Under the pieces are notes generated by a model that saw nothing but the letters and a program-made list of their open reading frames with translations, searched no databases and had not been told where the DNA came from. From Chara braunii (lineage: Eukaryota; Plantae; Charophyceae), in NCBI GenBank assembly GCA_003427395.1, contig BFEA01000003.1, positions 4,714,266 to 4,778,265 on the forward strand: DNA of 64,000 nt, given 5' to 3'. Shown here piece by piece: positions 1 through 35,414 of the stretch. The position numbers and the translations under genes are program-made. The stretch's first letter is position 1. Every line of letters begins with the position of its first letter.

Positions 1-1924
1 AAAGTTTGGTGATTGGTTGTGAATTGGATTGAGATGGGCAAATCACACAACTGTCGTGAGAGGGAACTACCACACAAACTCTTTGTTTGATTGCGATTGG
101 TCTTTTTCTATCCTGATTCTTTAATAGTCAAAGTAGGCGTACGCTCGGATAACCCTCACAAGGATATGCGACTGCACGTTTATGGCTCTCTTTTACTCAC
201 TGATTTTATATGGTCGAACGTAAGTCCCAAGTCCTAGGTCCGGGGCTGAAGGGATTACCCTTCACACAGTTCTGACCTACTTACATCCTTAGGGAAACAA
301 AAGCGCCGCGAGAAGGAGGGACTGACCCCCAGCAACTCGGTCCAGCAGGACATTCATGTCTTCTCCGGCTAGCGACAAACGCCCCTATTCTCTTTCCTTG
401 TTTAGTTTGCTTTTGGTGGAACGATAAAGTTCCGGGCGGAAGGATTAGTGTGTCGCTGGTGATGCGCCAGACAACTCACCACCGCTCCGAATCCCTTCCT
501 GCCCTAGGGACCATCTTACCTCGCACCCCTTGGGACACCTCAGGGTGNTGAAGACGGTAAGGCCCCCAGGCCGGTTTTTGCGCTCACTAAAGGTTTACCC
601 CCTTTAGCGTGCGCTTCAGCCGACGCCTGAGCATTGAAAGCGACCCCATGGCTTAAACGAGGCCACTCGGGTATGGGCACTACATGGTGCGCCGACATCA
701 CGATCGCTTACGCAAATCCGCATTGTTGGTTGATGGGTCAAGCGAAAAAGGCAAAGGCGCGTTATGGCTAGTAGACCCGAGTTTTAATAGCGCGAAACGG
801 CGCGTGGGCGAGATATCAATCCCAGTCGACGTATGGGGGCTCGCGTACGAGCCTCCAACGCCTCGAACAACGGGTTGCCTATGAGTCCAGCTTTGGGCAC
901 CATCCGCACGCATCTCACGGGTTGGCCTACACCTTCCGCTGGAGACTGTTATCAGACTATGAGCTAGACAGAGAGATGAAATAGGGTGATCCCCCCTTTT
1001 TTCTATCTGTAGTTGTTTCCTCTTTTAAGTTTTCTTGGTTGGACGTTGTAGTCCGTGGTAGCCGTCAAAGTCAAACCCCTTGATTTTGGCTACCACGACA
1101 GCTCTCGAGCTGTCTACTCAACCCCTCTGCACAGGGTGCAGAAGAGGGTGTGGTCTTCAACCGCACATGGCGGTTGTCTGGCGTCAAGAGTTAACCCCTC
1201 AAAGCGCCTGTCAGCCGACACTTGAGCGTCGAACGCGACCCTCGAGATTATCAAGGGCCACAAGGCTACGAGTACCACATAGTACCCCATCAGCGCAAAT
1301 GCTTGCGAATGTCCACATGGCTGGTCGATATGAGGGGGTCATGAGCACGCACGACTCTTATACAAAAGTTCAGCGCGCGATGCCTACCTGATTCTCGCAG
1401 CATGAAGTTATGGGTCCGATACTGAAGGGACTAGGAGTGTTGTGATGTTGTGTTTGTTTTGTGTTTTTCCATGTGTTATGTGTGGATAGATGTGAGTGTT
1501 GTGGTGTAACGCGTGGTGTGTGTGATGCATCCTAGTCGACCGGCGCCGAGTCGCGTTTGGGACCTCAGCCCCCAGTACGTTGATTCGCGTGCGGGTTCGA
1601 TTTTCAGGCGTTCAACCGCGCGTAACCCCCTATGCTACAGCGAGCGAGAAACGCCCTTGGCTGGGTCACCACTGCAGTTGCATACGAAAAAGTTTCGCAT
1701 GTGGTTCAGTAGCTCGGCGGGGATACGCCCACCTAAGGGATGGCGACAGCTCCCGCAGGTGGAGGTAAGCGGTGCCTCGCATGACCCTGTCCTATCGTAG
1801 GGGCTCGCGAGAGGTACAGCTGGCGCACTCGGCCGGAGCGGCTAAAACACTCTGCGACAAAGTCCTGCAAAATCTTGCGTGACACGGCCGGGAGGGTCCC
1901 CGTGCGGGACCGATGCGCTCGACA
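1..1924 (+). repeat. 5' LTR of element A (3' portion only)
   Basis: Near-identical to 20390-22566 apart from scattered substitutions, a 79-bp indel and an N gap. Ends in CA, followed by GG and the PBS. Confidence 0.95.
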
Positions 1925-1926
1925 GG

Positions 1927-1944
1927 TGGCGCCGTTGCCGGGGA
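1927..1944 (+). promoter_or_regulatory. Primer-binding site complementary to the tRNA-Asp 3' end
   Basis: TGGCGCCGTTGCCGGGGA, 2 nt after the LTR end. This is the Asp-type PBS known from Athila-like elements. Confidence 0.85.
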
Positions 1945-2292
1945 TCTCGGCTGCCTACCGGGGTCCACAGTGAATGAGCCCAGGTTAAGAGCGGGCAGAT
2001 GATCCAGGCAAAACGACAACCTTTGATGAAGAAGTTTGACGATGATATGAGTATTGTGCTATCTTCGATGGCCTATTAAAGTTTATTTTTGATTGCGAGT
2101 AAGGTTGAGAGTGTGCCTTGTGTGTATTCATTTCAAATAATAGAGTTGGAATTACGATATAAAGACCGGATAGACTACCTTAGTTATTAAGAGTATGTCC
2201 GATTGAATAATGAAACTAGAGAGTTTAGAGGTTTGACGGAAGGTTGTTTGTCGAAATCGTTTTTTTTCGCAACAGGTTGAGAAAGGACAAAG

Positions 2293-5200
2293 ATGCCGGA
2301 CTCCGATGGAATCGAGCGGGGCCCGGGTGCTACACCTTAGGACTTCGTCAAGGCATTGGAAAAAAGAGAGATGGCACGGCTTCAGGTGCCCAAGGTTAAC
2401 ATTTTGCACTTCAACGGGGATAGAGTGTCCGAGTGGCTTGAGTTGTTGGAGCAGGTCACTAGCGAGGCGTCAGAAGCAGACAAATTCAAGCTGATGCCTA
2501 GGTACGTATGGTGGGAGCTTAGACTTGAGGTAGTTTCAAGTAGCGGCCGACGCAAATGGTGAGTGGGCAAGGTTTAAAGAGGAGATGCAGTGGCGTTTCA
2601 AGTTAGGGGACGGCCTGCTCACAAAAGAAGACCTGGAAATGTTGAGACGGGATGAGTTCTCCACGGTAGGGGCCTTTGCCACAGCATTTGAGAAGATGGC
2701 AAAGAAAGTCCCAGGGCTGGTAGAAGAAGAACAGTGTGCCACTTTCCTGGGGCACTTTAAGAATTGGGAAGCCTCGTCGCTAACCAAGAAAGCTGCGTCA
2801 GGAAAGAAACTGACTTGGGGTGCCATAAAAGAAGGCGTGCTAGAGGAAAGGTTGGACCAGGTAGACATCTTCCAGATGAAACAGGCTAGGAAGAAAAGGA
2901 AGACTTTGGATACTATCGCTAGTGATCGGCGCAACTTCAAGCTAATGATAGAAGAGGCTGTGGCCCAGCACCATGCAGAGAAGGAGGCAAGAAAGAAGGC
3001 TATGGCGGCGCCATAAGCCCAAGGGAAAGGAAAGAAGGTGGTAGTGTTAGAGGAGGAGGAGAAAGAAGAAGAAGAGCCTGAACCACAAAAGTCGACAAAG
3101 GCTCAAAGGAAGGCAAGGAACACGACTCAAGGGGGGCAAGGCTCAGGAAAAGGTCAAGCCCCGCAGGCTGTAGCGGCGCCACCCCCTGAATCGTCTAATC
3201 AAGCCGCACCAGCACCCTATGGGTCATGGCCAGGTTGTGGACCTCCCAGTCATTGGCATGGGCACTGTTCATGTGCACCATGGCCAACGGGTGGGCCACA
3301 TGGATCATGTGCCGGAGCGCCGGTGAGTACGGCTTCCTGTGGATGGCCGGGACCCCAGTCTCAACAGGTGAGTCACTCGAACCCACNGCCAAACCAACCT
3401 CAGCAGTTGGCCCCACAAGGATCACAAGGGAATCAAGGCGGTGGACGAGGACAGAATCAAGGATGGGGCCGAGGGCGAGGAAATGGTGGCCGCGGGGGAT
3501 ATGGGAGAGGAAACGCGAACAGTAACTCCCAGAGAGGAGGAAATGACGGGTGGAACGGTGCAGGAAATCAGAGTGACCAGCAAGGTGGTGAAGGATATGG
3601 AAGAGGAAGGGTAGATTGGAGAAATGCCATCTGCTGGCATTGTGGCCAGAAGGGCCACACAATTAAGTTTTGTCAGGTCCGAAAGAGTGATGAAAAGGAT
3701 GGCCTGATGAGCTCAAGCTATGATGGTGATTTTTTCGACATGTACGGTGAGTGCATAGACCCGAGAATCCCAGGGGGGATACGGGAAGAAGCTCTGCGCC
3801 GTGCTAGTGCCCCAGCTCCACCAGCTCCTCCGGCCGCTTTCCGTATTTGGCAGGAAGTAGAAGACCGTCAGGGTGTGAGGATAGAGGAGATAAGCGAGAA
3901 TGAAGAGGTTGAGCAGAGATTGAGGGCCGACACAAAAAAGGAGGAGCCTATAGTGGTTGAATCCGACGACGACGAGCAAGATGGTGGCCACGGCAGGGCA
4001 AGAGACACGATGGAGAGAATGGAGGACCTACTGGCAAAAATCGGGAGGTACCAGGATAAGTTGACCACTCTTTGTGAGGAGGTCAACAGGTGGAAAGGAG
4101 AGTTACCATTGGTGTACCTCATCGATTCAGGCCCAGGGGCACAAGGCGGATGTGGAAATCTGCCCGGAGTGACTGTCACGGCGCCAACTCCCAGGTCTGG
4201 GATGACCTTCAGGCCGCCGTCAAGAGCCGGAAGGGCGGCTTTGGCAGCACGTACTAGATCGAAGGGAGCGCCCGACTCAAGCCATCCCACTCAGGACAGC
4301 CCGGGTCCCAGTGGAGAGAAAGAGATGGTAGAGATTCCAGAGGATGACGAGGACGAGGATGAAAAGTTGAGGAAGGAAGAGGACAAGAAGGCTGAAGAGA
4401 GAGCCAAAAAGAGGGGCGCCAAAACGAGCGCTGATAAAGAGCAGGAGGGAAAGAAGAGAAAGTATAAGGTCAGAATGGAGGAGGGGTTTGATGTGGAAGG
4501 AATGGTCGATCGACTCCTTGAGGGTCATAACGACCTAATGAACTTAAAGGATATCCTCGCTTCCGCTCCAAAATTGAGGGACGAGTTGAAGGCTCGATTG
4601 TCCAGAAGGTTAGTAGCAAGTGTGCGCTTGGGAACCATTATCCCCAAGGAAGCGGAATGGGCAGAGACAGGCACGAAGATGGATTGGAAGTCCGTCGCTT
4701 GTGGATGCTTGGACGTAGTAGTAAAAGGAAAAACGTGCACGACAATGGTGGATACTGGAGAGGAAATTAACCTCATAAAAGAGGAGCATGCTTTACGCCT
4801 GGGGATGGAGATTGATCGCTCCGATAATGGAGTTTTAATGGGAGCGAATAGTCGGTCTGTGTTCATAGGGACCGCATCGAGAATGGTTTTGGAGTTTGGC
4901 AAGGTTAAAGTGAGAAGTTGTTTCTTTGTGATGCCCGATCTCGACCATCCCATCCTATTGGGCCGATCCTTTTTTAGCCGAACGGAGACCGTCATACTGA
5001 ATAAGCATGATGGGACAATGTTCCTCGTCTTATGTGACCCGGTATGTGGCAACTATGAGGTTATCACATGCAAAAATACGGGGCCACAAAGTATAAGGAA
5101 TAGGCCCAATCCTGGCTCTTTCACGATTGAGGAATCGGGAGAAGAAAGGAAGAGGCTAGGAGGGGATGAGTTTGAAGAAGAAAGGAATCCGGAAGCACTG

Positions 5201-5446
5201 ACTCTTAGCCTGACCAATATAGGCGATGCTATGAAGATAGTGTCAACCTATGGGATGGCGGACATGGAGGCCGTAGAGGCCTTGAGAGAAAAGGTGATGG
5301 AACAGATGGGTGAAGGAGAGGTGGAGCTGGTATATTGGACGTCCGGAAAGAGAGGAGGATCGGCTGGAGTCCAACCCCTGTGTGCAATTCGGCCTTTTTT
5401 AGGGGTGGGATCAAGCAAGGGTCACAAAGGCGGTACAAAAGAGTAG
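2293..5446 (+). pseudogene. gag: gag-aspartic protease ORF of element A, disrupted
   Basis: ATG 2293 (MPDSDG...), capsid-like FNGDRVSEWL, zinc knuckle CWHCGQKGHTIKFC, protease MVDTGEEINLI...ILLGRSF. Stops near 2340 and 3014, frameshift near 2540. Confidence 0.9.
5395..5401 (+). promoter_or_regulatory. Putative -1 ribosomal frameshift heptamer T TTT TTA
   Basis: In phase with the gag-PR frame (CCT TTT TTA). The -1 frame continues RGGIKQGSQRRYKRVDKKCRPVP into the RT frame. Confidence 0.7.
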
Positions 5447-8400
5447 ATAAAAAATGTCGCCCTGTTCCTGTGCTCGTGACTGAGGAACAAGAAGTTTATT
5501 ACGAGCGGGAATGAGAGTTGATACGGCAGATGCGAGAGGACGCACAGAATGNGCCATGTCGTATCACTCCTGAGACAGAAAAAACGNTGATTATAGGGGA
5601 GTCCGGCTTCCTTACGGCGCAAGAGGAGAAGCTTATGGTGGAAACCATAAGAGGAAGGCATACTGCATATGCCTTCAATGATGACGAACGGGGCCGTCTG
5701 GATGTGGATAGGATCCCGATGATTAGGATACATATCGTTCCCCATGAGTCATGGAACTTGCGGGGTGCGCGCTATCCTAATCATGCTGATGAAGAAAAGG
5801 TAGTTACCTACCTTGATGGAAACATTCGTACGCACGTATCAGACTACTCGAGTGGGCCATATGCATCCCCTTGGTTTTGTTTCGTCAAACCAAACGGGAC
5901 CTTGAGGTGGGTACAGGATTTGCAGCGCCTGAATGCTGTAACTGTGAGAGATGCAGGTGGTCTCCCTAACGCAGATGCGCTTTCAGAGGCATGCGCTGGG
6001 AGAGTCATCATATCTCTCATAGACTTATATTCTGGTTACGACTGGTTTCCTGTTTACCCCTCTGACAGGCCGATGATGGCAATGCATACCCCTCGAGGGT
6101 TAATTCATATGAACGTCGCACCGCAGGGGTGGATAAATGCAGTCGCCATGGTCCAGAGGCACATGGTGAGGGCAATGTAGCCAGTAAGCCCTCACATTAC
6201 TCAACCTTACATTGATGATTTGGCCGTAAAAGGGTCTAAAGAGAAGAACGAGCAGGAGGTATTGCCAGGGATTAGACGCTTTGTCTGGAACCATGTGCAA
6301 AACTTGTGCAGGGTCCTAGACTTGTTAAAGAAGCATAACCTTACTGCAAGTGGGTCTAAATCGAGGCACTGCATGAGCGGGGCCACCATCTTGGGGTTTG
6401 TGTGCGACGAGAGGGGTCGTCGACCAGACACTAAGAAAACCAATAAGATTCTCGAATGACCAACCCCATTCGAGACTATTACGGAGGTGAGAAGTTTCCT
6501 CGGGACATGTGGGTTCTGGAGGATCTTCATAAAAGGGTTTGCGGCAAAGACGGAGCAACTTCGAAAACTCGTGCGCCAAGGACAAGACTGGGAATGGGGA
6601 GATAAGCAGGAGTTGGTAATAAAGGGCCTAAAGAAGGAATCCGAAGAAGGGGGTCTAGTACTGGGAGTACCGGACCACTCGGCGGTAATGACCAGACCTT
6701 TTATTGTAGAGACTGATGCAGGGCCAACTGCGCTAGGAGGTGTGTTGATTCAGCAAGATCTTAACGGAGAGGAGCGGCCACTAAGGTTTGAAAGTCGCAC
6801 GCTTAACACAACTGAGAGAAATTACTGTCAGTTTAAGTGCGAAACCTTGACGGTTCTCCGTTGCTTAAGAATCTTTAGGAACTGCCTCTTAGGCAGTAGG
6901 TTCGTGTTGAGGGTGGACCCAACTGCTCTAGCCGGTTCTCTCAAGAATTTCGCTCCATCAGACCCGACTATCGCCAGGTGGTTAACATACATCTGGTTGT
7001 TCGATTTTGAATTAGAGCGAATTCCAGGAAATAAGAATAGAGCAGACGGATTGAGTCGAGTTGACTGGGATAAAAATAATCAAGGAGTGATCGAGGATAC
7101 TCGCCAGTCGATGGGTTTCTGGACACTGAGGAGGATGTGAGACTTCACATCAACTCCTGGTCGATGGTCGTGGGTAACTACGTTACTCCTGGGCAACCTG
7201 TGTGGCTCTCGCCTCCAAGACATGTACGACGGCCAGACCTAGTCTTTAAGCCTTTCATCGAAGAGGACTCGTGAGGGATGTCAAACGTGCAATGGATGAT
7301 GGATCTGGCCTTAGCAGACAAATACCAGTTGCACGAAGACCTACTCACAATGGAAAATGGGGCGCAACAGGTAGAAAGACACGAGAGGTCGATAGGTGGG
7401 ATATACCTCTTGGCAAATGCTCTGCTTCAAGACGAGGTGGCAAGGATTGGGGATCAGCGGCAAGGTGAGAATGAGAATGTAGTTCACGAAGGAGAGGACG
7501 ACGATTTTGAAGAAGGAGAGATAAAAGAGGTTTTTCGCATGGAGGAGTATGACGGCATATATCTGGAATTATGAATGCTCCTTTCGTGCGAAATGAGAGA
7601 AACAGATGCGTGCGAGAAAGTCCTCAAGATGCGACCAAACTTCTTGGTAAGGGATGACCATTTATTTATGAGGAGTAAAGGGAAGACTCCAAGAAGGGTA
7701 GTCTGTGGCATCGCTCGTCAGATCGACGTCATAGCTGCTCTACATGATGGTAAGGCAGGTGGCCATAGGAGTAAGGATACAACTTTCCTCGAAATACACG
7801 AGCTATACTATTGCGATGGCATGGGACGAATGATCAACGATTATTGCAAGTCATGTGTTCCATGCTAGGAGCAGTCTTCCATTAGACCTAGGGAGCCACT
7901 TCACCCAAGGTACGTACGCGAGGTTGGGGCGGTCGTGCATTTGGACTTATTGGCAATGCCGCTGGGAGTAGGTGGGTATAACTTTATCTTCGATGCACGA
8001 GACAACCTCTCCGGTTTTGTAGATGGCAGAGCCATACGCACAAAAACTGGTGAGACCTTGACTCGATGCATTGAGGAGTATTACCTCCGCTATCCTTTTG
8101 TCTCCAGATTCGTNATGGACAGAGGGTCCGAATTCACTTGTGCTGAGGTGAAAGAACTGCTGAGAGGGTATGGAGTGATCGCAGAGTATACTACTGCGGG
8201 GCACCCTCAAGCTAATGCACATGTGGAGAGAGGTCATAGTACGATTACGAATCTCCTCGCTAAGTGGACGAATGGTAGGCCAAATCAGTGGCCTAACTTC
8301 CTACGGGTTGCCTTCTTCGTGGATAACATCACTGTCAGAAGAAGCACCAACTACGCGCCAGCAACGTTGTGGTATGGCAGACATGCGACCTTCCCTATCG

Positions 8401-8819
8401 AAAGCTTCCTAAAGACTTGGAGGCGGCAGGACCTCGAGACAAACTTGTCCTTTNAGGAACTGCTAGAACTAAGGGNTCGTCAGATTAATGCCATAGAGGA
8501 CAGAATTGAAAGTGCGGCGAGTNAGGTGGCTGACANCCGANAGAGGGATAAGTTCAGATGGGATAAGATGGCAAGGGTAAGGAAGGAGCCTCTCAAGGTG
8601 GGCGACGTTGTGTTGCTATATGATTCATCCTTAGAGAAGCAGTGGTCGCGAAAGTTAGACAAGAGGTGGTTAGGACCATACAGGGTCGCAAGGAGTGGAG
8701 AGCATGGGACATACCAGATTGAAGAGCTGAATGGGACTGCCTGGAAAGATTGGGTGTCAGGCTCGAGGTTAAAGAAGTTTGTCGCTCGAGACGAGGTGAG
8801 CGTGGGTCCCACAATTTAG
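5401..8819 (+). pseudogene. pol: pol (RT, RNase H, integrase) of element A, disrupted
   Basis: RT motifs PYASPWFCFVK, DLYSGY and YIDD (about 6208). RNase H VETDAG...RFESR...NRADGLSR. Integrase HHCC, HLDL, DRGSEF, VERGH, WLGPY. No chromodomain seen. Several stops. Confidence 0.95.
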
Positions 8820-9086
8820 AGTCCTTTTCTGTTAAGTATTACTAGATAAAGATATATATATAAATATGAGAAAATTGTGTATGTTTTTCAGTAGAATGGT
8901 GTGATAGAGTATAGTATTAAGATATATTTATATACGTGTATTTACACATGTATGTATGTGTAGTTAAGATAGATATGAGAGGGGAATGTTTGTCTCCTGT
9001 TTTGTTTGCCGAACCTGCTTACCCTCTGTATGCTTTTGTCTGTCTCTTCCTTGTTGTGCAGGTTTGACACCAATTTTTGGGCAGCC

Positions 9087-11418
9087 ATGCCAAGAGGGAG
9101 GGGAGGGGCAGGGTCAGTGGAAACCCCTCTGGGGGTTACCAGACAGGGGACGCAGATGAGGGCCAGAAGAGAGGACAGGCCACCCATTTATACAGGAGAC
9201 AACGTTGAGTTGTTCATGGTTGGGTTCAGAAGGTACGGTCATGAGTTTGGATGGGATAGTAGCAGGCTGCTGCAGGAGGTGTGAGGAGCAGGCGAGTGGG
9301 CACATCCCCTTGCCAACTTCGTCAGGGAGTCATTGACCTGGCAGGATTTTGAGAGGAAGATGGAGGGCTTGCACCCATCGCCATTAGGAAGGGATGGACA
9401 ACCCATCCGTTTCGATGCCACTAACTTGTGGGAATTCCTGAAGGGCTACGACGAGTTTGCAGACAGCATCAACAAGCCACCAAGCCAGAGGGTGAGGGAT
9501 TTTATTCTGTTTGTAAGGGAACACCTCAGGTCCTTCATCAGATCTATTGTGGAGCCTGCCACAAACTGGAGCCATTGCAAGAAATTGCTTTGGAACTACT
9601 ATACTCCAGCTCGTCAGGCAGAGGAGAGGAGGAGTGTGCATAGAAAGAGGAAGGAGCCAGAAACTGCAGAGAAGAGAACCTCTGAGCAGGGCATGACCTC
9701 AGGAGCTCAGAGGGATGGCCAGAGGAGAGAGCACAGGTTCCGGAGGCAGGAGAGAGAGGAGGACCAGCATATTGGCAAGACTCAACAGAAAGAGGAGCAG
9801 ACTGCAGAGAGGACCCAGAGGGGAGGGCCCTCAGGTGGATCAGATATACCTCCTCACCTTGCTCACGTACCTGAGACCACTCCTAGGCCAGGCATGCAGC
9901 CAGAGACGTCTCATAGGGCACAGGGTCAGGGAAAGGATGAGGATCAGGCTGCAAGAGAGAAGGAACAGGACAAGGAAGAAAGAGCGGCAATAGAGAGAGA
10001 AATCAGAGTCCAAATCAAACTCAAGAACATTGCGGAGCTGCACGAGAAGTTTAAGCAGGGAGAGCAGCCTGTGATACTAGAAGGCAGAAAGGGGAATGGC
10101 TCACCTACTCAAGACGATGAGACTCCTCTTTTCATAGAGGCTTGAGACAACTTTGATAAGTTGTTGGAGGCAACAGGGAGGCCCAGGGAGGCCCAGGGAG
10201 CAGCATCAGGAGATGGGGGTTAAGCTGGTCTCTACAGACTTGCTTAGCCTGAAGGGCCTTACGAAAGAGGGTTTTGCGGCGGCCAAGACTTCTAATGAAA
10301 AGATGGAGAAGAGGTTGACGAGGGTGGCACGGGCGTCTCATGAGCAGAGAATGGACTGGCAAAAAGAAATTGGTGATCTCAAGAAGGAGTTGGAGAGGCA
10401 GGACAAGGAGATGGAAGCCATAAAGACTGAGGTGGAGAAGGCTTGGGCAGGCAACGAGGCCATCAGACAGGTCAACCAGACCCTTAACAAGGTCAATGAC
10501 AATCTGAGGGCCTACTTGCAGATACAGCAGAACACCTTTCAAGTAAAGAAGACGAAGTGGGAAAAGAGAATCATGGACCTTAAGGCCAAGTGTGCACAGC
10601 AGGCACCTACTGCAGTGGTAGACTGAACAGAGGTCCAGAGGTTTGAGATCAGGAAGCAGCCTGCAGAAGAGGCCTTCAAGTGTCAGAAGGTGGAAGAGAG
10701 GGCAAACGACCAGAAGGATGAGGAAATCCCCCTGCTAGATAAAAAGATGTTGCAGTCTGAGGACGCCCTAGCAAAGATGAAGTCAGGAACCGGGGGGTTT
10801 GAGTGGAGGATGCCCACAGTCTTGGCACATGAGGCAAGGCCACCAGCAGAGGATGCGATGGATGAAGCTGCACTTCCCGTGACTCAGGAGGAGACTGTGG
10901 GGAGACAGGAGGTTCAGGAGAGTGTGGGACAGGCCATGGCTGAGGCTGAGGAAAGGGAGGAGCAGGAGGTATCTCAGAAGACCCCACCATCTCAGGATAT
11001 GCCTCTAGTTGCAGGTCTGGAGGATGCATTGGGATCTTGGGCCACTGGATCCGGGGCAGAGGAGCGAGTGAGTGAGCAGATGGCCCAAACAGATGACAGA
11101 GCAGCATGCCCCATTTCCCCAGAGCACCCACAGCAGGAGGTCACCAGCGAGGCCACAGCAACCCCCTCATCTGTACCCTCCCATGCAGCTGACAAGATGG
11201 AGCAGAAAAGGTTTGGAAGATGCTTCTACTGCAAGAGAGGCAAGCACCCACAGGAGACCTGTCCCAAAAGCCTCAAGGATGAGGCTGATGGTTTGTTTTC
11301 ATGGGACCCATCTGGCGTACGCAGGGACAGAGATGGGAACCTGATCCTGAAGACTCGTGATGGGATACGAGCGCAGTTGTATAGGCAACTGCAGGAGGAC
11401 ATGAGTGATCAGGAGTAG
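9087..11418 (+). pseudogene. Second Gag-like ORF downstream of integrase (two capsid-like segments, coiled coil, CCHC zinc knuckle)
   Basis: ATG 9087 follows a pyrimidine-rich ...TGCAG acceptor (9061). Motifs PPIYTGDNVELF, FDATNLWEFL...WSHCKKLL and CFYCKRGKHPQETC. Stops at 9282, 10143 and 10624; frameshift from a 10-bp duplication near 10175-10195. Confidence 0.7.
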
Positions 11419-14670: not shown

Positions 14671-14735
14671 GTCCTGCGGGACATCCGTTAAAATTGGAAC
14701 GATACAGAGAAGACTAGCACGNCTCCCTGCGAAGG
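14671..14735 (+). ncRNA. U6 snRNA-derived fragment (5' ~60%) inside element A
   Basis: GTCCTGCGGGACATCCGTTAAAATTGGAACGATACAGAGAAGACTAGCACGNCTCCCTGCGAAGG matches the plant U6 5' stem-loop, ACAGAGA box and AGC region. The U6 3' end is absent. Confidence 0.9.
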
Positions 14736-16192: not shown

Positions 16193-18040
16193 CGTGCCGT
16201 GAATATTGCCACAGCTAAACCCCGCGGGCAGCAGATTACCGTGGGTAACTCCCAGTCAGGTTGCCACGGATGCTGTTGGGTGCTGAGTTGTCATGCACTG
16301 GATCTCCTGTGCACTATGAGACTAACCGGGCCTGCTGTACCATTGCAGGTGCTACCACTATACCATCAGCCACTACTACTACGATGCCATGAAGAGGGGC
16401 AGCTAATAATTGCTAACAGCTGAGGATACGGGCTGCCGCATCAAGGGCAGCCACCACTGTAAACAGGGTGGGTTTTGCTGCCTTCTTTTCAAGATACTGT
16501 GGATCCTTCTACTCGGTACTGCTGCTACCATTACCAGGCGGTGGTTGGGTATCATTGGTGGTACGGGGAGGGGGATAAGTGACCAGTGGTCAACCGTTGG
16601 ATTGCTGTAGAAGGAAAGTGAGACCGTGGCAACTACCGCACGAGTGTCGCAGGTCCGTGTCACCAGCCACCTGTTGCTGACTGACAGAGTGCCTAGGCCT
16701 GCTGCAGGTTANATTGAAGATACCCANNAACGGCTGGGGNNNGTTCTGCTGTGCTTTCGGAGTGGTGTTGCTGTGTCTTGTTGGCCTTGCTGGTTGCCTG
16801 GTTCGGGGGCTACCACTGCGGCCGGTACCTTGTCTCCCGGTTGTTGCCCCCCTCCACTTCGAGTGTTACTGACGACTTGGCGACCGGCTAGTACAAGGAA
16901 GGTGTAGTTGCAGCAAGGTGAACTTCTCCTTCGGCTGCTATAGCCGTGGCCAGCTGTGCGACTATGCTGCCCGGAATCGCTGATGACATACATCGCCTAG
17001 TGCTGCTATCATAGTGTTACCCCGTTCTCTCGTGGGCGTCAGGTGGTTGTGTAATTGTCGGCACTCCTATTCTGCTGTAGCTGTGTATGGGCAGCTGCTG
17101 AGTTTGGCGGGTCTGTGGCTGCATAGTGGGTGACGCTTTACAGTACACTCAGTGTCTGCTGCTGAGTAACTGTACTAATTACGGTGCTCAATGCTCCTTG
17201 CCGTACTCTGCGCCTTGTGGCTACACGCCCTGTGTTGACTGCGGGGTGCTGCGCGGGCTGGGTGCTGCTCCCCACTGAGGACTTTTGCTGGGGGCTGGCA
17301 ATTGAGGGCCGACTAATCCAAGCTGTTGTATTCTACTGGCCACTGGGGGCTAGGTACAGACTGTGACTATTGCAGGCCGTTCGTCTTATTGAGTACGCGA
17401 CGGCCAATGCAGCAGTCCGGACTGCTGCTGAGATAGGCTCGGGTGGGGTGCTGTCGCGGTATTGGGCGTTGTTTGGGGTGCTGTTGCTGCGCAGAAACGC
17501 CGTGCCTTACTAGAAGCAGCAACAACTTGGGTTGGTGAAAGGGGGCAAAGTGAGAGAAGGGAATGTGGTAACCGTGAGGAGTGAGACCGGGCTTGGCAAC
17601 GAGGACTATGGCTGCGACTTGAGGGGGTTGCGGGGGTACCGTTTGAGATTGGTAATCTGCACTTAGCTGCGGGCTGAAGGGTGCTACTNCACTATCTGGC
17701 CATCATTGCGGGGCCCTCAGGCGAGTNAAGGCTTCAAGGCCCTCTCACGCGAGTCTGAGAGCACCCATCTGAGAGTCTGACTTATTCTCTTTCTGCCCTT
17801 CTCAGTCTCAGTCTAGTCTATTGGTGCCGAGAGGGAAGCGGCAGGCGGGATTGCAACCCGTAGGTCNNNNNNNNNNNNNNNNNNNNNNNNNNNNNNNNNN
17901 NNNNNNGACATGCGATGCAAAGGTTTAATAAACAAGTATATATGAGAATTCAGATAACTTTTGAGAGAATTCAGACAAANGAATTGGGGGAAGGTGGGAT
18001 GAAGGAGTTTTTGCATGCGTCTGACCGCGTCAAACCCAGG

Positions 18041-19250
18041 CTGAGTCCCTCCGGGTGGATGTNGGCTCAGTGCTATGTTTTGTTGAGGTTTGCTGTATTG
18101 AATGAATGACTTTTATGGCTGGTCCACCCGGGTGGGATAGGATCAGTCGCTGTTTTATTTTAGGGTTTCTGAACAGGAGGACGGGCACCCCGGGTGGGGA
18201 AGGCTCAGAATCTTGGTGTTTATTTTAATGAGTTGTGGTGCGTGTTTTCTTCTGAGGGAGTAACGGCATAAGACTAAGCGTACCCTAGGGTTAGGGCGGC
18301 TTAGCCATGAGCCATGAACTAAATGGTCAACCAGAGTATAAAATTTGATATATATACAATTTGAACTTATACTTCTGACAGACTGGGCGCCCCGGGTGGG
18401 GAAAGTCAGTAAGTGAGTCAGGTAGAACTAAAGAAGAGGGAAAGAGATGAAGAGTAAAATGAAGGTAACTGGGCAGACTGAACGTACCCTAGGGTTAGGG
18501 CGGTTCAGTTATATGCTCATGATAACACTAAGGAGCAGAGAGTTAGTATAAATCTTATTTTATTTCCCCTTCTAGACGTGAGGCTGAATCGGAAGTTCCA
18601 CTAGTTAGAAAGGTCCGATTGACTGCCTAACAAGAGAAGGAAAAACATAAAGTCTGTGAAAGTATTTGTACCCTATTTTCTGTTGTATGGCTAACTAGGC
18701 GTACCTTAGGGTTAGGGCGGCCTAGCGATAAGCCTTTGTCGTTTAANGTAAGTTGGANGTACCCTAGGGTTAAGGCGGTCCAGCGTTTCGGTATTTATAA
18801 CTGTTCAGGCAGATCAGGCACACCCTAGGGTTAGGGCAGCCTGATCACATTGCCTTATGTAACTTAAATTGTATGGCTAACTAGGCGTTCCCCAGGGTTA
18901 GGGCGGCCTAGTAATATGCCTTTGTCGTTGATGTGCTGTGGGTTGGACGTAACCTAGGGTTAGGGCGGTTCAACTTTTTGTCGTTTGTACTTANGTTCAG
19001 GCAAGCTAGACCTACCCCTGGGTAGGGATAGTCTAGAATAATGTCGTATGTAACTTCGTTTAAAGCAGACTGGGCATACCCTAGGGTTAGGGCAGCCCAG
19101 TCCTATGCGCTTGTTGTTAGTTAGGCATATACCTTATGTGTATAGTTCCTGTCATGTTGGGCACACCCTAGGGTTAGGGCAGTCCAATTGTGTGTGCCTT
19201 ACTCGTGTACCTAGGCAGGTCAGGCATACCCTAGGGTTAGGGCTTTGTCT
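18041..19250 (+). repeat. Array of about 15 stem-loops with a conserved GGGT tetraloop and co-varying stems
   Basis: Inner CCCTA-GGGT-TAGGG or CCC-GGGT-GGG, an internal loop, and outer stems that differ between copies but stay complementary. Confidence 0.9.
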
Positions 19251-22200
19251 CACCGTATGCCATAGGAAAGGGGGATGTAAAAGGGAATAACGAGATTTTT
19301 TGAACGAACTATGAGGTTGAAAGAAACCTGAGGGTTGGTGAGAGATGTTCGTTGTGATTGTTTGTGTGTGTGTTTGCGGACTCTCACTCTGGGACATCTT
19401 CTGATAGGATTAGTTGCTTTAGATGCTCGCTGAGTGCTGGAGCCATAGGCAGATAAGATGGATGATGGGAGAAAAACTTCGGATAAGATAGAACTTGGCT
19501 CTGCTAGGACTTAGGATCAGTGCTAGCTCACGCTCTCATCTAGAGGTCGTGCAGACTATCACTGATTCTACCTTTCAAAGTAAGCGTCAGAAGTTAGTCC
19601 NAAGTANAGTTTTGCTTTGTCTTCCTATTTTTAGCTTTGTATAAATCTTGGCAGCCTCCTTTTCCTACNGGAAGCGCTGCNGAAATTTCTACAAATCANA
19701 AAGAGTTAGTCATTTTTGGGCTTTCAGAAATTCTGAAAAGACACTTTTCCTACGGGAAGCGCTGCCGAAATTTCATAGAAATCGAGGAGTTANAATAATT
19801 TATGCTAGGAGAAACTTGGCAAGTNCACCCTGAATAGAGGAGATGCTGCCAAATTTCTCAGGACCCAGATTANAAAANGGAAGCTGAGTTTAAGACTAGT
19901 AGAGGAGCTAGGATACGAGATAGAAAGTATTCTCCATGTGAGGTAAACGTCGTAGTGGTTCTCTTTGGCCTGTACTGTGATGCAGGTCTTTGTGACTTGG
20001 TTGAAGGATTGATCNGGCCAGCATAATCCTGTTAAGGATTATTCTTCTGTTATCATTGATAACAGGTCGGTTGCCGATTCGTCGGCTTACGACTCAACTT
20101 TCCTACTACTTCTGCTTCTCAACCTAAAAGCCTTGGCCCTTGTTGGTTTATTGTTTTCTTTGGCCCTTGTTGGTTTATTGTTTTCTTGGGTTTTCACCCA
20201 GATTCTTTATAAATGGTCATTTCTTTAAAGACTGAGTATCTTTGTTATGGAAAGGTGGGGAATAGGTTGGGCTTGTGCGCGTAAGGTAGGGTGTGAGCTG
20301 CAGAAGGCTGAAAAGTTGACCCCTTTAGTGTGTGTGATGTCGTTTGATTTNTGTATGTGATCGCAGGTATGTGTGGAGAAACCTCGATAAAAGTTTGGTG
20401 ATTGGTTGTGAATTGGATTGAGATGGGCAAATCACACAACTGTCGTGAGAGGGAACTACCACACAAACTCTTTGTTTGATTGCGATTGGTCTTTTCCTAT
20501 CCTGATTCTTTAATAGTCAAAGTAGGCGTACGCTCGGATAACCCTCACAAGGATATGCGACTGCACGTTTATGGCTCTCTTTTACTCACTGATTTTATAT
20601 GGTCGAACGTAAGTCCCAAGTCCTAGGTCCGGGGCTGAAGGGATTACCCTTCACACAGTTCTGACCTACTTACATCCTTAGGGAAACAAAAGCGGCGCGA
20701 GAAGGAGGGACTGACCCCCAGCAACTCGGTCCAGTAGGACATTCATGTCTTCTTCGGCCAGCGACAAACGCCCCTATTCTCTTTCCTTGTTTAGTTTGCT
20801 TTTGGTGGAACGATAAAGTTCCGGGCGGAAGGATTAGCGTGTCGCTGGTGATGCGCCAGACAACTCACCACCGCTCCGAATCCCTTCCTGCCCTAGGGAC
20901 CATCTTACCTCGCACCCCTTGGGACACCTCAGGGTGTTGAAGACGGTAAGGCCCCCAGGCCGGTTTTTACGCTCCCTAAAGGTTTACTCCCTTTAGTGTG
21001 CGCTTCAGTCGACGCCTGAGCATCGAAAGCGACCCCATGGCTTAAACGAGGCCACTCGGGTATGGGCACTACATGGTGCGCCGATATCACGATCGCTTAC
21101 GCAAATCCGCATTGTTGGTCGATATGCGTAAGTCCTATAGTCGCGCGGCCTTATGTTAACCCGCGCGCGTGACACTTACCGATTTCCACACCTGAAAGTT
21201 GTGGGTCAAGCGAAAAAGGCAAAGGCGCGTTATGGCTAGTAGACCTGAGTTTTAATAGCGCGAAACGGCGCGTGGGCGAGATATCAATCCCAGTCGACGT
21301 ATGGGGGCTCACGTACGAGCTTCCAACGCCTCGAACAACGGGTTGCCTATGGGTCCAGCTTTGGGCACCATCCGCACGCATCTCACGGGTTGGCCTACAC
21401 CTTCCGCTGGAGACTGTTATCAGACTATGAGCTAGACAGAGAGATGAAATAGGGTGATCCCCCCTTTTTTCTATCTGTAGTTGTTTCCTCTTTTAAGTTT
21501 TCTTGGTTAGACGTTGTAGTCAGTGGTAGCCGTCAAAGTCAAACCCCTTGATTTTGGCTACCACGACAGCTCTGGAGCTGTCTACTCAACCCCTCTGCAC
21601 AGGGTGCAGAAGAGGGTNNNNNNNNNNNNNNNNNNNNNNNNNNNNNNNNNNNNNNNNNNNNNNNNNNNNNNNNNNNNNNNNNNNNNNNNNNNNNNNNNNN
21701 NNNNNNNNNNNNNNNNNNNNNNNNNNNNNNNNNNNNNNNNNNNNNNNNNNNNNNNNNNNNNNNNNNNNNNNNNNNNNNNNNNNNNNNNNNNNNNNNNNNN
21801 NNNNNNNNNNNNNNNNNNNNNNNNNNNNNNNNNNNNNNNNNNNNNNNNNNNNNNNNNNNNNNNNNNNNNNNNNNNNNNNNNNNNNNNNNNNNNNNNNNNN
21901 NNNNNNNNNNNNNNNNNNNNNNNNNNNNNNNNNNNNNNNNNNNNNNNNNNNNNNNNNNNNNNNNNNNNNNNNNNNNNNNNNNNNNNNNNNNNNNNNNNNN
22001 NNNNNNNNNNNNNNNNNGCGATGCCTACCTGATTCTCGCAGCATGAAGTTATGGGTCCGATACTGAAGGGACTAGGAGTGTTGTGATGTTGTGTTTGTTT
22101 TGTGTTTTTCCATGTGTTATGTGTGGATAGATGTGAGTGTTGTGGTGTAACGCGTGGTGTGTGTGATGTGTCCTAGTCGACCAGCGCCGAGTCGCATTTG

Positions 22201-23890
22201 GGACTTCAGCCCCCCAGTACGTTGATTCGCGTGCGGGTTCGATTTTCAGGCGTTCAACCGCGCGTAACCCCCTATGCTACAGCGAGCGAGAAACGCCCTC
22301 GGCTGGGCCACCACTGCAATTGCATACGAAAAGCTTTCGCATGTGGTTCAGTAGCTCGGCGGGGATACGCCCACCTAAGGGATGGTGACAGCTTCCGCAT
22401 GTGGAGGTAAGCGGTGCCTCGCATGACCCTGTCCTATCGTAGGGGCTCGCGAGAGGTACAGCTGGCGCACTCGGTCGGAGCGGCTAAAACACTCTGCGAC
22501 AAAGTCCTGCAAAATCCTGTGTGACGCGGCCGGGAGGGTCCCCGTGCGAGACCGATGCGCTCGACAGCGTTATGCCCTGGCTTGAAAAGCCCTTCGATGC
22601 ATGGTCCGAATTGGACTGGGAGAACACAATGAAAGACTGCCCTTGAGCATCTGATTATCGACTAGCATTCATCCAAGAATGGGGGACATTCATCTTCCTC
22701 GACCAAATCCTCGTGACGAAACACACGCCGGTGTTGTCTGCGGCATTTCGTACCCAAGACCGTTTTTTGCCGTTGACTGCGCACAACGTGTCGTGTCCAC
22801 CACGCTTGTGGGAACCATCGATGAAGATGGAGTTGCTCGACTGCGCGAAACAGAACCAGTTTCTAGAGGAATATCCCTTCCTTTCCAGGACAACTTGACG
22901 GGGAGTGTGTCGTACTTTTGCGTGATCTTTGTCGTTTCTCTTTCGCTAGGGTTCTTTGTGTTTTGGTAAGAAATAGAAGTAAGACTTCAGTGGAAGCGAG
23001 TATTTACGTGTCCTGAAACGGGCTCATCGTTGACGGGGACTCGATTATGTAAACGCATGGTTGGAGGAACGGTAGGTTTGACGTGAAACTGGCGGGCCAG
23101 GTCGATACACCCCGGCATTGGTAGGAGGTCGAGGAGTACGTGAAGGTCATTAGAGATGACATCGGTCGCACTTTAGCGAGATCATGTGGTTTCATCCGTG
23201 CACGATACGTGTCTTGCTTCTCCTCCACTGCAACCCTGTGCAGTCCACAGCTCCTGACGTACGGTTCATCCCTGAACACAGTGTACAGTTTCGGGGCGAA
23301 AGGAAAGGCGAGGTCGAGGGGGAGGTCATGGGAGATGAACAGTGTAGGACATGTCAGCTATTCAGCTGTTCAGCAAAAGTGACACCGAAGACTGTGTATG
23401 CGTGCGAGCATTGAGTTTGATGTGAGCTTGTCAATGTCGGTTTAACCTCCCTCTCTCTTTCTCTCTCTTATGTGTGCGTGTGTGTGTTTAGTGATCGGTG
23501 GAGCGTACTGTTAGTCGCTCGTTGCGGGTGCCGGTTACCTGCCTTGCCAATTGAATGCCTCGAATTGATGATGGATGTAAGTTTCCAATTGATGTGCCTT
23601 GATTGGTGTGCCTTGTTTGTGACGCCGCTTCCTGTTCAGCGAAAGATGAACAGTTTGAGAAATGTGGGTCATTCAGCAATAGTGTGGACTGAGAATGTAT
23701 GTGTTATGAAAGCAATGGGTTTGATGTGAAAATGTCGATGCTGGCTTTCGATCCTTCTGCTTTGTTTGATGTGACTTTTAGCTATGCCGCTCCCGTGTTC
23801 TGTTTGTCTGCTTTTGGATACGCCGTCCCGTTCCCGTGTTCTGTTTGCCAGCCCGGTCGTGTCGAACTGTCACGCTGCCCCCCCACGTTT

Positions 23891-24545
23891 GAGTCAAACT
23901 CGATCGAATCGACCTCCATCGAGTCGATCTCGATCGAGTCGAACACGATCGAGTCGAACACGATCGCCTGGACTCATGATCGGATCCAACACGATCGTCT
24001 GGACTCACAATCGTCTGGACTCACGAACGCCTGGACTCACGTTCGAGTCGACACGATCGGCTCGAAGACGATCGCCTTAACTCACCATTGAGTCGAACAC
24101 GATCGCCTGGGCTCACGATCGACTCGAACTCGATCGAGTCGAACACGATCGTGTCAAACTCGATCGAGTCGAGCATGATCGAGTCGAGCATGATCGAGTC
24201 GAGCACGATCGTGTCGAACTCGATCGAGTCGAACACGATCGCCTGGACTTACAATCGACTCGAAAACGATCGAGTCGAACACGATTGAGTCGAACGTGAT
24301 CGTGTCGATCATGATCGAGTCGAACACGATCGAGTCAAACACGATCGAGTCGAGCACGATCAAGTCGAACACGATTGAGTCGAACGCGATCGAGTCGATC
24401 ATGATCGAGTCGAACACGATCGAGTCGAACACGATAAGCCTGGACTCACAATCGAGTCGAACACGATCGAGTTGGTCTGTCACGCTCACACCGAACAAGA
24501 TCGTGTTGACCACGGGCATGATCACGATCGAGTTGAACACGATCG
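23891..24545. repeat. 15-bp tandem repeat, consensus ATCGAGTCGAACACG
   Basis: Roughly 40 degenerate units, with interspersed GCCTGGACTCAC variants. Confidence 0.95.
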
Positions 24546-24738
24546 TGGTTGCCTCGTCACGAAGGAGATGCTGCCTTATCACTATTTGGAACTTTTCTGC
24601 TCCTCGTGCCATGCCAACGTTGTGTAGCCTTCTGATTTTGTGCTTCGCCGTGATGTGTTGTGTTGCTTTCAGATTAGGCAGCGCTACAAAACATGGAAGG
24701 AGAGGGGAAGGCAAGTAAATGACGAGCAAGTAAGAATT

Positions 24739-27700
24739 ATGGGAGCACGGAACAATCTCCGAAAAAATCGAAGGGGACTCCGACCGCTGGGGTTGGGAGT
24801 TTGGAGGCATCGGGGCTTAAGCGGCAACGCATCCCGGTTTCAAGGGGTGCACCTTCCACGGGCACTCCGTCGACTCGTGTTCGGCTCTGGACCGGATAAG
24901 GCTGTGTTGATGACTGGCGGGCCTGCGGGTCAGGAACGTGTGCCTGGTCCACAGCACGGGAGATCTGCAGTGGAGGTTATGCCCGAACGCAAACCGTCTG
25001 GAGAACGTAAACCGTCTGGCGAACGTAAACCGTCTGGTGAAACGACTGCTGCGGGTCGGCGAGACGATGTCCCCGTGATTGACCACAAGGACAAGTTATG
25101 GATGCTGGACTGGGTGGGGGAGACCGGACAACCATCGAGTGGCCTTGTTCTATACGTGGTCATCAAAGAAAATATTGTGCCGGTTGGCGGCCTGGTGAGG
25201 TGGACTGGGCAAAATGTGTCGTTTGCAACTTTCGAGTTGACGATGGTCCTGAATGGAAGAGGGGAAAGAATACCAAACATTAAACACGTCGCTCTTCGAT
25301 GGGCCAAACACGCGGGGCTTGGAAAGTCGCTGGTTGATGTGTTCAACCCACCAGGGACATTGGAAGTGAAGTTGCCTAACCTCGTTGACGTCCTCGGGTT
25401 TTTCGACAGTAATGTGATCGCGGGCAGAGCGCCGGTTGTGCATCCAAAGGACCGCATATCAGAGCCTAAATGCGTGCTTTCGAAAACCGTGGAGACAGGG
25501 TCTTCGATCACGATCCGCGATACGCCGCCTGGTCCGAAAGCTGGGCAGATAGGAGAGAAGGGTCCGTGCCGCGGACTGGTCGTACCATCAGCCCCTATGA
25601 AGACCAGGCCAACGACGACCAAAACACCAGTTGCCTTGGGCAGTCGATCGCGCTATGATGTGGCCACCAAGGGACATCCCCCCTTGGTGGGCCAGCAGCG
25701 CTATGACTACGTAGAGGAAGTCCATGAGTATTTTGAAGATGAGGATGAATAGAACAGCAAGGAATATTCTGAACGAGCAAGAGGACAGGAACAGTATGCT
25801 GCGGGTGTCGGCGCCATGATGAAGACAGTGAGCACACTGTGAGCGCATCGGGTGGGGAGGTTGGTCTGGCAGGAGGATATGGGAGCAGCTACGAAGGATA
25901 TGAGGGGGATGTGCACGCGACAAAGGCTGTGGCTGGGCATACAGATGCTGCAGGGCTCTCTGAGCGAAAGAGGAAGCACAGGCGCGAGAGGAAAAGTCTT
26001 ATGGATAATAAACGGAGTAGGCAAGAAGCGGGTGAAAAAAAACGATTGAAAATAATGTCCGTGGATGAGGCGGTCCAGCGAACGCGGGAGACTGAGGCAG
26101 CCGCGAAGAAAAAGCAGCAGCCAAAAAAAAGAAAGGCAAAAGGTGGTGTTATGGAAAAGACTTCTGTTTTTCCAGCGGAACAACCACAATCGGATGAAGA
26201 GGCCCAAGGCAAGACAGTTACTAGGCCGCCAAGTTTGCGAAATGTGTCATCAGTGACTTCTTCTGGTGTTCTTAGCAAAGGTTTTTTCCTTGAGTTGGAC
26301 GAGCGTGGGAACCAATGTCCAGACATGGAATTCATTTCTGTCCAGTTCGACAGAATTATGAATATCCCCGATGGGGAATTCAGATACAATCAACGTTATC
26401 TTGTGCAGCAGACGGTTGACGATATTTATGACGCAATGATTGCATCGGGTGAGGCTGCTATGAGAGAGAAAATGACTGGAGTTGCCGGTGTGAATGTCTA
26501 TACGTTGTATGAGAAGCCTGTCCTTTTGTTGGTTGCCCTCCGTGATACATTGCATACTAACGCTTCAGGGAGGATTGTGAGAGCAAGGAGGGTATTGCCC
26601 TATGATTTCGATCTCGAATCTGTGAACAAGTACTACTACTACCCTCTCAGCGGTCAGCATAACGTGGCAGCGGCAAGAAGATTTTGTTGAACACCCTGAC
26701 ATCGCACAAGAGCTCCGATTGGATCGCTGGACTGCGAGGCCTGTTTATTATCCGGATAAGAGCATGGACAATTACGGCACGCTGAGCACTTTCCAGAACT
26801 CCAAGGACAAATGGAATACCCCACCGCACCAGAACGTGGTCGTCCAGAACATACGAAAGTTGTGGCACGAATCGAACTGTCCTGAAGCTAAAGGCGGCTC
26901 AGTAGCAGAAGTGAGAAATGCAGAGTATAGAAAGTTTGCAGGAGAGGCTCTTCGTTCGACCGGGATTCGTAATTTTATTGACATGTCCCTTACTACTCAG
27001 TAGAGCGGCCAGTGGTCTGACGCCCTTGGGCCCTACATGTTGTTGGCAAGGGCGACAGATGACGTTTTCGAAAAGGTGAAACAAGTGTACGCCGCTTGGG
27101 AAGCTGGACAATTGTCGGGGAGAGATGATGTGAAGCCTGCTACCAAACAAGGTGAATCAGGGAAGGCACCGAGGGCTGGACCCGGATTTGAGTTGAAAGG
27201 TGGAGTTAGGTATCCGGTTCACTGGGTTCAAGGTACCAAAGGACCTGGTTACCTCGTGGCTGTGCACGATCCGGATATCAGAGCGTGGAAGCCTTTTTCA
27301 GCGCTTGGGAGGCGTGAGCGGCTGCAACTATTGCGAGACATTCTCACAGGCAGTGTAATACCGACTCCTTAACAAAGTGGAGTTGCTCAACGTGCCGGAA
27401 AACATTCAACGGAAACATATGTGGAAATGGTGAAGAATGAAAGAGCAATGTTGAGGATGTTTCACTACTTCGTCTTCATTTCTAACCCTCACAGGAAGTC
27501 GTCAGAGTGGACGGAACCATTCTTCAACAACCTTTCCGATTTGTTTGATAAGTACTCTGATGAAGGATTGACGTCCGAGAGGTGGATCGACCAGCGTCGC
27601 CATTTCAAAGAGATGAGTTGGGTGCGAACGTTCCCGGCTACACTTGGAGGAGAGGAGGAAAAAGGAGAAGAGGGCTTCAAGAAAACAGCGTCACTTGCTG

Positions 27701-30441: not shown

Positions 30442-31202
30442 CCTGAACTTATGGTTGCAAAATCAGAAGCACAACAGTCAGTTAACCTCGTGATATCTAT
30501 CGACGAAGCTCCTTTTACACCATCGCATGGTGCGATAGAAGATCGTGTTGAAGACAAAGTGTTAGTGAGCCACCGAGGTGAGCACGTACTTATCTCTAAG
30601 GGAATATCTAATATTGTATGCGGATTAGGGGGTACATGCACTCATCTCATAGGAACTAAGTTTTTACCTAAGTTTGCAACCGTGCGCTCGATCATGAGAA
30701 GAAATGAAGTATAATATTGTGTATCTCTTATTTGCATTTATGTGAAAAATTGAACTTAAACTCATAATATTTTGTCTTGTCAATCATTGTCGTTTTATAT
30801 TGCTGAACATGTAGGGCAACGAAAAGAACTGTGGAAAACGACGCACGTACATTCGCAAAGACAGAGTGAGAATAATATTATTCATCATAGTTTGCAAGCC
30901 TTATCGACTTTGCCGTTATTGCCCAAAAAAGAGAGAAGAAGACTTACACCCATGACATTGTTATCTATGAAGTCAGTTGCCCTAAGGATGTTTAAAACTG
31001 TTGGAATAAGCCTCAGGGAAGGGAATAAATTGCATCGCGAAGGTTGCAGTTTATCTATTGTGGATGGCAGCTCTGATAGCGAAACAGATAGACAACCAAA
31101 AACATGAACTCGGGTCTACGTCGTACATCACATAACAAAAAGTTTGTTTTTGTATGAAGTCTTAGTCGTTCCATTGTTGTTTATATGTGTATTTGTATGC
31201 AG

Positions 31203-35068: not shown

Positions 35069-35414
35069 AACGCCCTCGCGAGTAGCGAGCTGCTCGCTGC
35101 AACGGGCTGAGCGAATGGCTCGACGCGTCCGTAGTCCCAGCGGGGAAGGAGGGGAGACGGTGGTCTGCAGGGGCGCAGACGGTACTCCGATAGGGGCTTA
35201 GTACACTCTGTCGAGTCCTGCGATACCTGAACTCCAGTAGGGAGAGGGGCGAACCGCGACGGAGATGTCAGGAAGCCGACTACTGAGGAGGGCGCAGGTG
35301 TACACTGCACCGTGGCTAGGAGGCACCGCGGGGATGCGAGGCGCCAGGAAGGGACGAAGCACGACGCTGGCGGGGAAGGTCAGCGTAGTGGCAGTCAAGG
35401 GCGGTGGTGTAAGG

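Follow-up and report, generated by a model that had tools for sequence, protein, structure and literature searches.

A Gag-derived accessory open reading frame with two capsid N-lobes in the env position of a Ty3/Gypsy lineage of Chara braunii

Introduction

Where does a long open reading frame (ORF) behind the integrase of a plant retrotransposon come from, and what could its product do for the element? The question is raised by a window of 64,000 nucleotides from Chara braunii (assembly GCA_003427395.1, contig BFEA01000003.1, positions 4,714,266 to 4,778,265 of the forward strand), in which a Ty3/Gypsy element carries such a frame, here called ORF2. A preliminary description had taken it for a second Gag paralogue in the position of env. 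Extra ORFs of LTR elements are described as env-like, antisense or unrelated in the available excerpts of four reports (PMC7264820, PMC6317226, PMC11963269, PMC3248453). For the additional ORFs (aORFs) of plant Gypsy elements, the excerpts of PMC7264820 and PMC6317226 give mostly unknown origins and name none as Gag-like. According to its excerpt, PMC6317226 discarded elements in which one type of domain occurred more than once, so that cases of the order gag-pol-gag could be hidden there. In titles and abstracts we found no Gag-derived ORF behind pol; the Chara genome paper or repeat libraries may already note ORF2. LTR elements with an extra 3′ ORF are already known, and new here is a version that is Gag-derived and has N-lobes with no C-lobe detected.

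Results

The first part of the window (1-22566) is a single LTR element of the Ty3/Gypsy type of more than 22.5 kb, as seen by repeat search and Pfam; its features lie on the plus strand unless stated otherwise. The 5′ LTR (1..1924) starts before the window and is repeated from 20390; the 3′ LTR (20390..22566) contains an N gap, and its true start lies somewhere upstream of 20390. The two LTRs differ by 39 mismatches in 1696 aligned columns (2.3%). Directly after the LTR end stands a primer-binding-site-like motif (1927..1946), which we take to match tRNA-Asp. It is followed by the broken gag-protease region (2293..5446; Pfam protease), in which the element's own Gag has a capsid with N- and C-lobes (about 2377-2870) and a CCHC knuckle with tail (3632-3802), and by the broken pol with reverse transcriptase and RNase H as well as integrase (5515..8819; Pfam and lesion scan). 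The order Gag-PR-RT-RH-IN between LTRs is that of Ty3/Gypsy elements. The weak Pfam match of DUF4100 to the element's Gag (E 0.0013) is a lead only. An acidic, conserved insert of ~150 residues (7140-7600) between RNase H and integrase is common to the subfamilies with 39-74% identity and gave no Pfam match in the part that was scanned.

Several further features were observed in the 3′ part of the element. Its non-coding region contains the 5′ part of a U6 snRNA (14671-14731, plus strand; Rfam model positions 1-65 of 105, 42.3 bits, E 4e-8, slightly below the gathering score) with a T-run ~40 nt beyond the match, for which a retrocopy or a carried Pol III cassette are candidates. A degenerate, Q/P/T-rich coding-like stretch on the minus strand (16193-17700) adjoins an assembly gap and might be an antisense extra ORF or a nested element. 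Upstream of the 3′ LTR lies an irregular repeat array (18260-19250) based on CCCTAGGGTTAGGG, which in our view resembles plant telomere motifs. The rest of the window holds a tandem array with a 15-nt unit (24070-24450) and several long ORFs on the plus strand (24600-32000), probably a DNA transposon, the last part of which we assume to be Ulp1-protease-like. On the minus strand are a second, unrelated Ty3/Gypsy-like element (33171-37553) with a Gag ORF and a reverse transcriptase with YLDD, and an open frame of 525 amino acids (43295-44872) that presumably is a host gene of the F-box/leucine-rich-repeat type.

ORF2 (9087..11418) lies behind the integrase and is a pseudogene in the window copy. 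The preliminary description had placed an AG at 9060-9061, GCAGCCATG with the ATG at 9087 and the stop at 11416-11418, and these positions were confirmed; the length it gave, ~770 codons, agrees with the about 774 codons obtained by reading through the lesions. These are three TGA codons (9282, 10143 and 10624), which had been seen before, and a 10-nt tandem duplication that shifts the frame (10174..10200), which had been missed. With four lesions in 2.3 kb, ORF2 is damaged at a density equal to that of gag-pol with 11 lesions in ~6.5 kb (eight stops and three frame changes, one of which may be natural), which fits an ORF2 that was intact at insertion and later decayed with the rest of the element. 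The window copy of ORF2 is dead. The CpG observed/expected ratio is 0.25 in ORF2, sharply bounded, compared with 0.73 in gag-pol; by bin it is 0.20-0.31 over 9001-11400 and 0.54-0.87 in the gag-pol bins.

ORF2 has, in this order, two N-lobes, a linker, a predicted coiled coil, a second linker, and a knuckle with tail. The first capsid N-lobe, CA1 (9171..9395), contains the stop at 9282 and is directly followed by the second, CA2 (9396..9614). A basic cluster HRKRK (9639..9653), replaced by KRKE- or RRRE-like residues in the translations of sister copies, may be a nuclear-localisation or RNA-binding patch. The predicted coiled coil (10267..10605) is 39-66% identical in eight models of distant subfamilies; the coiled coil previously proposed here finds weak matches to many coiled-coil families, which are its sole basis and all lie below the Pfam cut-off. 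Between the lobes and the knuckle extend about 500-700 residues of poorly conserved linker. The final part (11221..11415) consists of a CCHC nucleocapsid knuckle of the form CX2CX4HX4C (11221-11262), as the preliminary description had stated, and a Gag-type tail.

The spacer between integrase and ORF2 (8820..9061) is AT-rich with 31.5% GC and ends in a pyrimidine tract with the AG at 9060-9061, a predicted splice acceptor. By a crude pyrimidine-tract score this AG ranks first of the 1803 AG sites of the element, in line with the strong 3′ acceptor that had been claimed. A leader of 25 nt (9062..9086) separates it from the ATG; because gene models of sister subfamilies read this leader in different frames, it is likely untranslated. 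The models enter ORF2 at a fixed point, seven to eight codons before the conserved Met, although their upstream sequences differ: 51 models with 41 different upstream 8-mers share it in one subfamily, and 13 and 9 models in others, out of 142. These entry points are choices of the gene predictor and point to a conserved acceptor-like site, not to splicing itself. The start of ORF2 is conserved as M[PQ]RG[GR] with an RG-rich stretch after the Met. Donor-like sequences are found in the LTR (GAG/GTAAGC at 1764, within 1757-1774) and at the integrase end (GAG/GTGAGC at 8795/8796). A fusion of integrase and ORF2 was rejected for the window copy, in which a splice from 8795 to 9061 runs straight into a stop. 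We consider it likely that translation of ORF2 starts at an ATG of its own, on a subgenomic RNA produced by splicing. As the spacer also contains TATA-like motifs and the strong donor-like site at 8795 would splice into a stop, an internal promoter or reinitiation are equally open. An AT-rich tract and an acceptor-like site (2275) likewise stand before the gag ATG (2246-2295), and 23 of the 1803 sites score as high as this one; a splice from 1764 to 2275 would drop the primer-binding site from the gag-pol mRNA.

Homology to Gag was assessed by hhalign comparisons of deep profiles built from natural relatives, each with 30 column shuffles and a reversal as controls. CA1 and CA2 match each other with 96.9% (E 1.4e-10). 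CA2 matches the N-lobe of the element's own Gag with 92.8% (E 4e-7, 65 columns); the match of CA1 to this lobe is weak (11%, E 0.003), in register across 63 columns. When CA2 was compared with three single N-lobes from Gags of its own lineage, 78, 33 and 91% were obtained, compared with 0.8% for the Gag of the unrelated Gypsy element of the same window (35439-37553), the sole outgroup used. The knuckle and tail match those of Gag with 95.2% (E 2.7e-8), and the tail without the cysteines still does so with 93.5% (E 2.3e-7), the score being reached by 0 of 30 shuffles in either case. The knuckle and tail had previously been aligned to Gag by eye; a single-sequence search within the window does not bear this out (tblastn E 0.26, not significant), whereas the profiles do, for the tail alone as well. 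Shallow profiles from 5-14 close copies gave only E 0.045 for CA2 against the Gag N-lobe, and 5 of 60 shuffles scored as high. The ORF2 N-lobes are only ~20% identical to the present Gag. In Pfam, no capsid family is named for ORF2, and DUF7158 matches 7 of 26 ORF2 members (best E 1.3e-4).

The fold of the lobes points in the same direction. A first sequence search of the PDB returned no capsid; with a profile, dArc1 and dArc2 occupied four of the top five rows over CA2 (dArc2 with E 4e-4 and 1e-3), with one RSC8 chain among the same rows. An AlphaFold2 model of a sister copy from 26 diverse rows reached a pLDDT of 92.4 and a pTM of 0.73, compared with a pLDDT of 50.6 and no structural match for an earlier model from nine close sequences. 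The top 13 among the Foldseek matches listed are Arc, dArc, PNMA2 and Copia capsids, with a best E of 0.32 that is not significant. Superposition placed lobe 1 of the model on residues 46-121 of dArc1 (VIA Z 9.1, 69 aligned at 2.1 Å), while the N-lobe of human Arc was the counterpart of lobe 2 (VIA Z 9.1, 67 aligned at 1.9 Å); Z values to capsid N-lobes range from 8.0 to 9.1 compared with 4.3 for the best non-capsid, a Z of 9 being a middling value for helical domains. For the predicted model, the check for a capsid fold that the preliminary description had proposed thus came out positive for both lobes, and its two tandem capsid-N-like segments are backed by profiles, PDB sequences and fold alike. 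The whole model differs from two-lobed capsids by an rmsd of 12-15 Å, where the linker may flex. A prediction of a complex of three Gag capsid chains with the tandem lobes, run without use of alignments, scored 0.01 and speaks neither for nor against an interaction.

A capsid C-lobe was not detected in ORF2 by sequence profile. The Gag C-lobe profile found no match after CA1/CA2 in any of 133 models and none in six of six ORF2 interiors (at most 0.14%), and comparison with the C-lobe gave 0.5% for CA2 (4 of 30 shuffles as high) and 1.7% over 15 columns for CA1. Retrotrans_gag, which matches the capsid stretches of sister Gags in 9 of 11 cases, below its cut-off, matches 0 of 26 ORF2 members. 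Neither was a transmembrane segment found in any of seven sequences (maximal hydropathy 0.58-1.09). Compared with a full Gag, ORF2 therefore has the N-lobe, in two copies, and the knuckle, while the C-lobe is undetected; it has the position of an env-like sense 3′ aORF, with no transmembrane segment found. We conclude from the undetected C-lobe and transmembrane segment that it is a half-shell derivative of Gag and neither an env nor a full Gag. An env role was rejected, there being no membrane segment in the seven sequences. What stands of the claimed second Gag paralogue is a duplicated and rearranged, partial derivative of Gag that occupies the env position.

A search of 1.84 billion representatives with a profile of the first 160 residues of ORF2 returned 100 proteins with an E of at most 0.001. 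All relatives with a name are gene models of Chara braunii (19 of 19, 4 of 4 and 47 of 47, plus 10 of 10 looked up from the unnamed set); the comparisons below use predicted, often chimeric models of a single species. Three proteins were left out of the tally of gene order: P0005, which is evidently the model of the window copy itself (over most blocks 99.6-100% identical), and P0030 and P0119, repeat-type matches. CA1 and/or CA2 are then present in 133 of 142 proteins. Of these 133, 110 show gag/pol on the upstream side alone and 0 on the downstream side alone; 2, which are tandem or chimeric models, have it on both sides, and in 21 it was not detected. Between pairs of models, the identities of CA1 and CA2 follow those of the models' Gag, RNase H and integrase, restricted to in-frame domains (rho 0.63-0.88), and 0 of 200 permutations were as high in each of the 10 comparisons. 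In a tree of the lobes (60 rows, only 78 columns), CA1 forms one group (96/92) and the Gag N-lobes another (100/99), and CA2 was not recovered as one; as the tree has no outgroup, the donor Gag cannot be named from it. At least four subfamilies carry the two lobes in tandem, and the same approximately four subfamilies recur within CA1 and within CA2, which indicates that the tandem arrangement predates the subfamilies.

Conservation differs along ORF2. In the next subfamily, with an integrase core of 84-86% identity, CA1 is 60-68%, CA2 60-71% and the knuckle region 63-74% identical, compared with 30-36% for the adjoining linker. In distant subfamilies the lobes are 26-41% and the integrase core 66-78% identical. 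Mean identity is 0.46-0.48 for the ORF2 N-lobes versus 0.59-0.67 for Gag. Judged by these identities, ORF2 is under domain-wise constraint and changes faster than pol or Gag. A long, LTR-like repeat pair bounding ORF2 was not found. A nested non-autonomous element was rejected, since ORF2 has no LTR pair of its own and the same position across subfamilies; ORF2 is thus a feature of the lineage and not a nested insertion. Absence from sister copies or a nested insertion had been named as possible refutations, and neither was encountered. The origin of ORF2 from Gag and its anatomy are thus well supported, as homology, modelled N-lobe folds, position and lineage-wide presence have been shown.

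Discussion

We propose, at a probability of roughly 0.4, that ORF2 encodes a co-assembling, RNA-binding modulator of particle assembly, in analogy to RTL8 or Ty1 p22. Splicing from a 5′ donor, for which the site at 1764 in the LTR is a candidate, to 9061 would yield the ORF2 RNA. The N-lobes of its product would join Gag capsomers via N-lobe contacts and the knuckle would hold element RNA. As capsomers are linked by C-lobe contacts, which it would lack, the protein would be unable to close a shell alone, and its dose could limit, cap or reshape assembly around the unusually long RNA (~20 kb), by which the element would regulate itself. The precedent of RTL8, an N-lobe-only protein that enters and suppresses PEG10 particles, favours this reading. 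Against it speaks that the ORF2 N-lobes are only ~20% identical to the present Gag and evolve faster than it, which is unexpected for a protein docking on Gag, and the sharply bounded CpG depletion likewise counts against co-assembly. Moreover, the lineage is abundant, so that strong self-restriction is not evident. We further speculate that the element might be a retroelement with two capsid proteins, in which Gag was duplicated into the env slot, rebuilt with a double N-lobe, switched on by splicing and used to set particle size or number; this would be possible, with the odds against it.

Other functions have to be weighed against co-assembly. The knuckle and the RG-rich start could bind unspliced genomic RNA for export, stability or delivery, in the manner of Rev or CERV, with the protein oligomerising through N-lobes and coiled coil and not entering the capsid. 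The conserved M[PQ]RG[GR] start and the basic cluster would suit such a regulator, as would the need of the genomic RNA to bypass a very strong predicted acceptor. A precedent, according to the excerpt of PMC10309623, is CERV of the C. elegans element Cer1, which is made from a spliced mRNA, partly shares Gag sequence and is needed for export of the genomic RNA. As the localisation signals are inferred only and the two capsid N-lobes, among the best-conserved parts, would be left unexplained, we regard this role as rather unlikely. The faster evolution compared with Gag would fit host-facing surfaces, and peptide-bound Arc N-lobes are among the best structural matches; the lobes could thus bind host peptides, soak up anti-capsid factors of the host, or act as tethers that hold particles or RNA at a compartment or at cell-cell channels. 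However, a common fold is no proof of function and no partner is known, which makes an Arc-like adaptor or decoy distinctly unlikely.

Two lobes and a knuckle are also the layout of Gag, and since the lobes stand in tandem in at least four subfamilies, CA1 and CA2 might act as N- and C-lobes of a new shell that packages RNA with its own knuckle, repeating the ancient lobe duplication. Yet CA2 matches the Gag N-lobe (92.8%) and not the C-lobe (0.5%), the whole model deviates by 12-15 Å from two-lobed capsids, even if the linker may flex, and the 500-700 residues of poorly conserved linker between lobes and knuckle do not suit such a shell; an independent second capsid is therefore improbable. 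Finally, ORF2 could be a functionless gag-only fragment of another retroelement that was captured once. The CpG ratio of 0.25 versus 0.73 would suggest a different history or mutational regime, and the specificity for the lineage's own Gag rests on one outgroup Gag. Against a passenger speak the retained identity of 26-41% in the domains, the conservation of start, lobes and knuckle, and the co-divergence with gag-pol; nor was an LTR-like repeat pair found to flank ORF2, and we consider this reading very improbable. Co-assembly with Gag is the reading that we favour.

Among the extra 3′ ORFs of green-plant LTR elements, ORF2 is a case in which the origin can be traced, namely to Gag itself. 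Gag-derived inhibitors of assembly are known as host genes, such as RTL8 and Fv1. If our reading is true, a separate, diverged and element-borne assembly inhibitor, retained while the lineage radiated, would be a third route beside host genes and a truncated reading of gag as in Ty1 p22, the env slot could be filled by self-duplication, and the tandem lobes would be a natural object for testing capsid evolution and the packaging of ~20 kb RNAs.

In comparison to known systems, ORF2 differs from the env-like sense 3′ ORFs of Athila and Bagy2, as given in the excerpts of PMC7264820 and PMC6317226, by being Gag-derived and by having no detected transmembrane segment. The Arc and dArc N-lobes (PDB 6s7y, 6tno, 6taq) have the same fold as both modelled ORF2 lobes (Z up to 9.1, ~2 Å), but the Arc proteins are encoded by the host and have both lobes, N and C, whereas ORF2 is element-borne with the C-lobe undetected. 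Cer1 CERV is, like the proposed ORF2 product, an accessory protein of a Gypsy element with some Gag sequence; its RNA is spliced while that of ORF2 is predicted to be, and the excerpt of PMC10309623 describes H, M and G domains with a Cys loop and no duplication of a capsid lobe. Ty1 p22/p18 is, according to the excerpt of PMC8458377, a fragment of the capsid that the element itself encodes; it is made from a subgenomic RNA, and its target is the assembly of Gag. The parallel to p22 that had been drawn at the outset holds only in part: p22 is the C-terminal part of Gag with the same sequence, and Ty1, a Copia-type element, makes it from an internal transcript, while ORF2 is a separate, diverged gene outside gag's own frame and has the opposite lobe. 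The closer working analogue is RTL8, described in the excerpt of PMC11684626 as having just an N-lobe; it is unable to form particles, is taken up into those of PEG10 and reduces their yield. Both are Gag-derived with a capsid N-lobe, the C-lobe being absent from RTL8 and undetected in ORF2, and ORF2 has the homology expected of an N-lobe decoy; RTL8, however, is a small host gene that arose by domestication and has a single N-lobe but lacks a nucleocapsid, while ORF2 is carried by the element itself and has two N-lobes, a knuckle and a predicted coiled coil.
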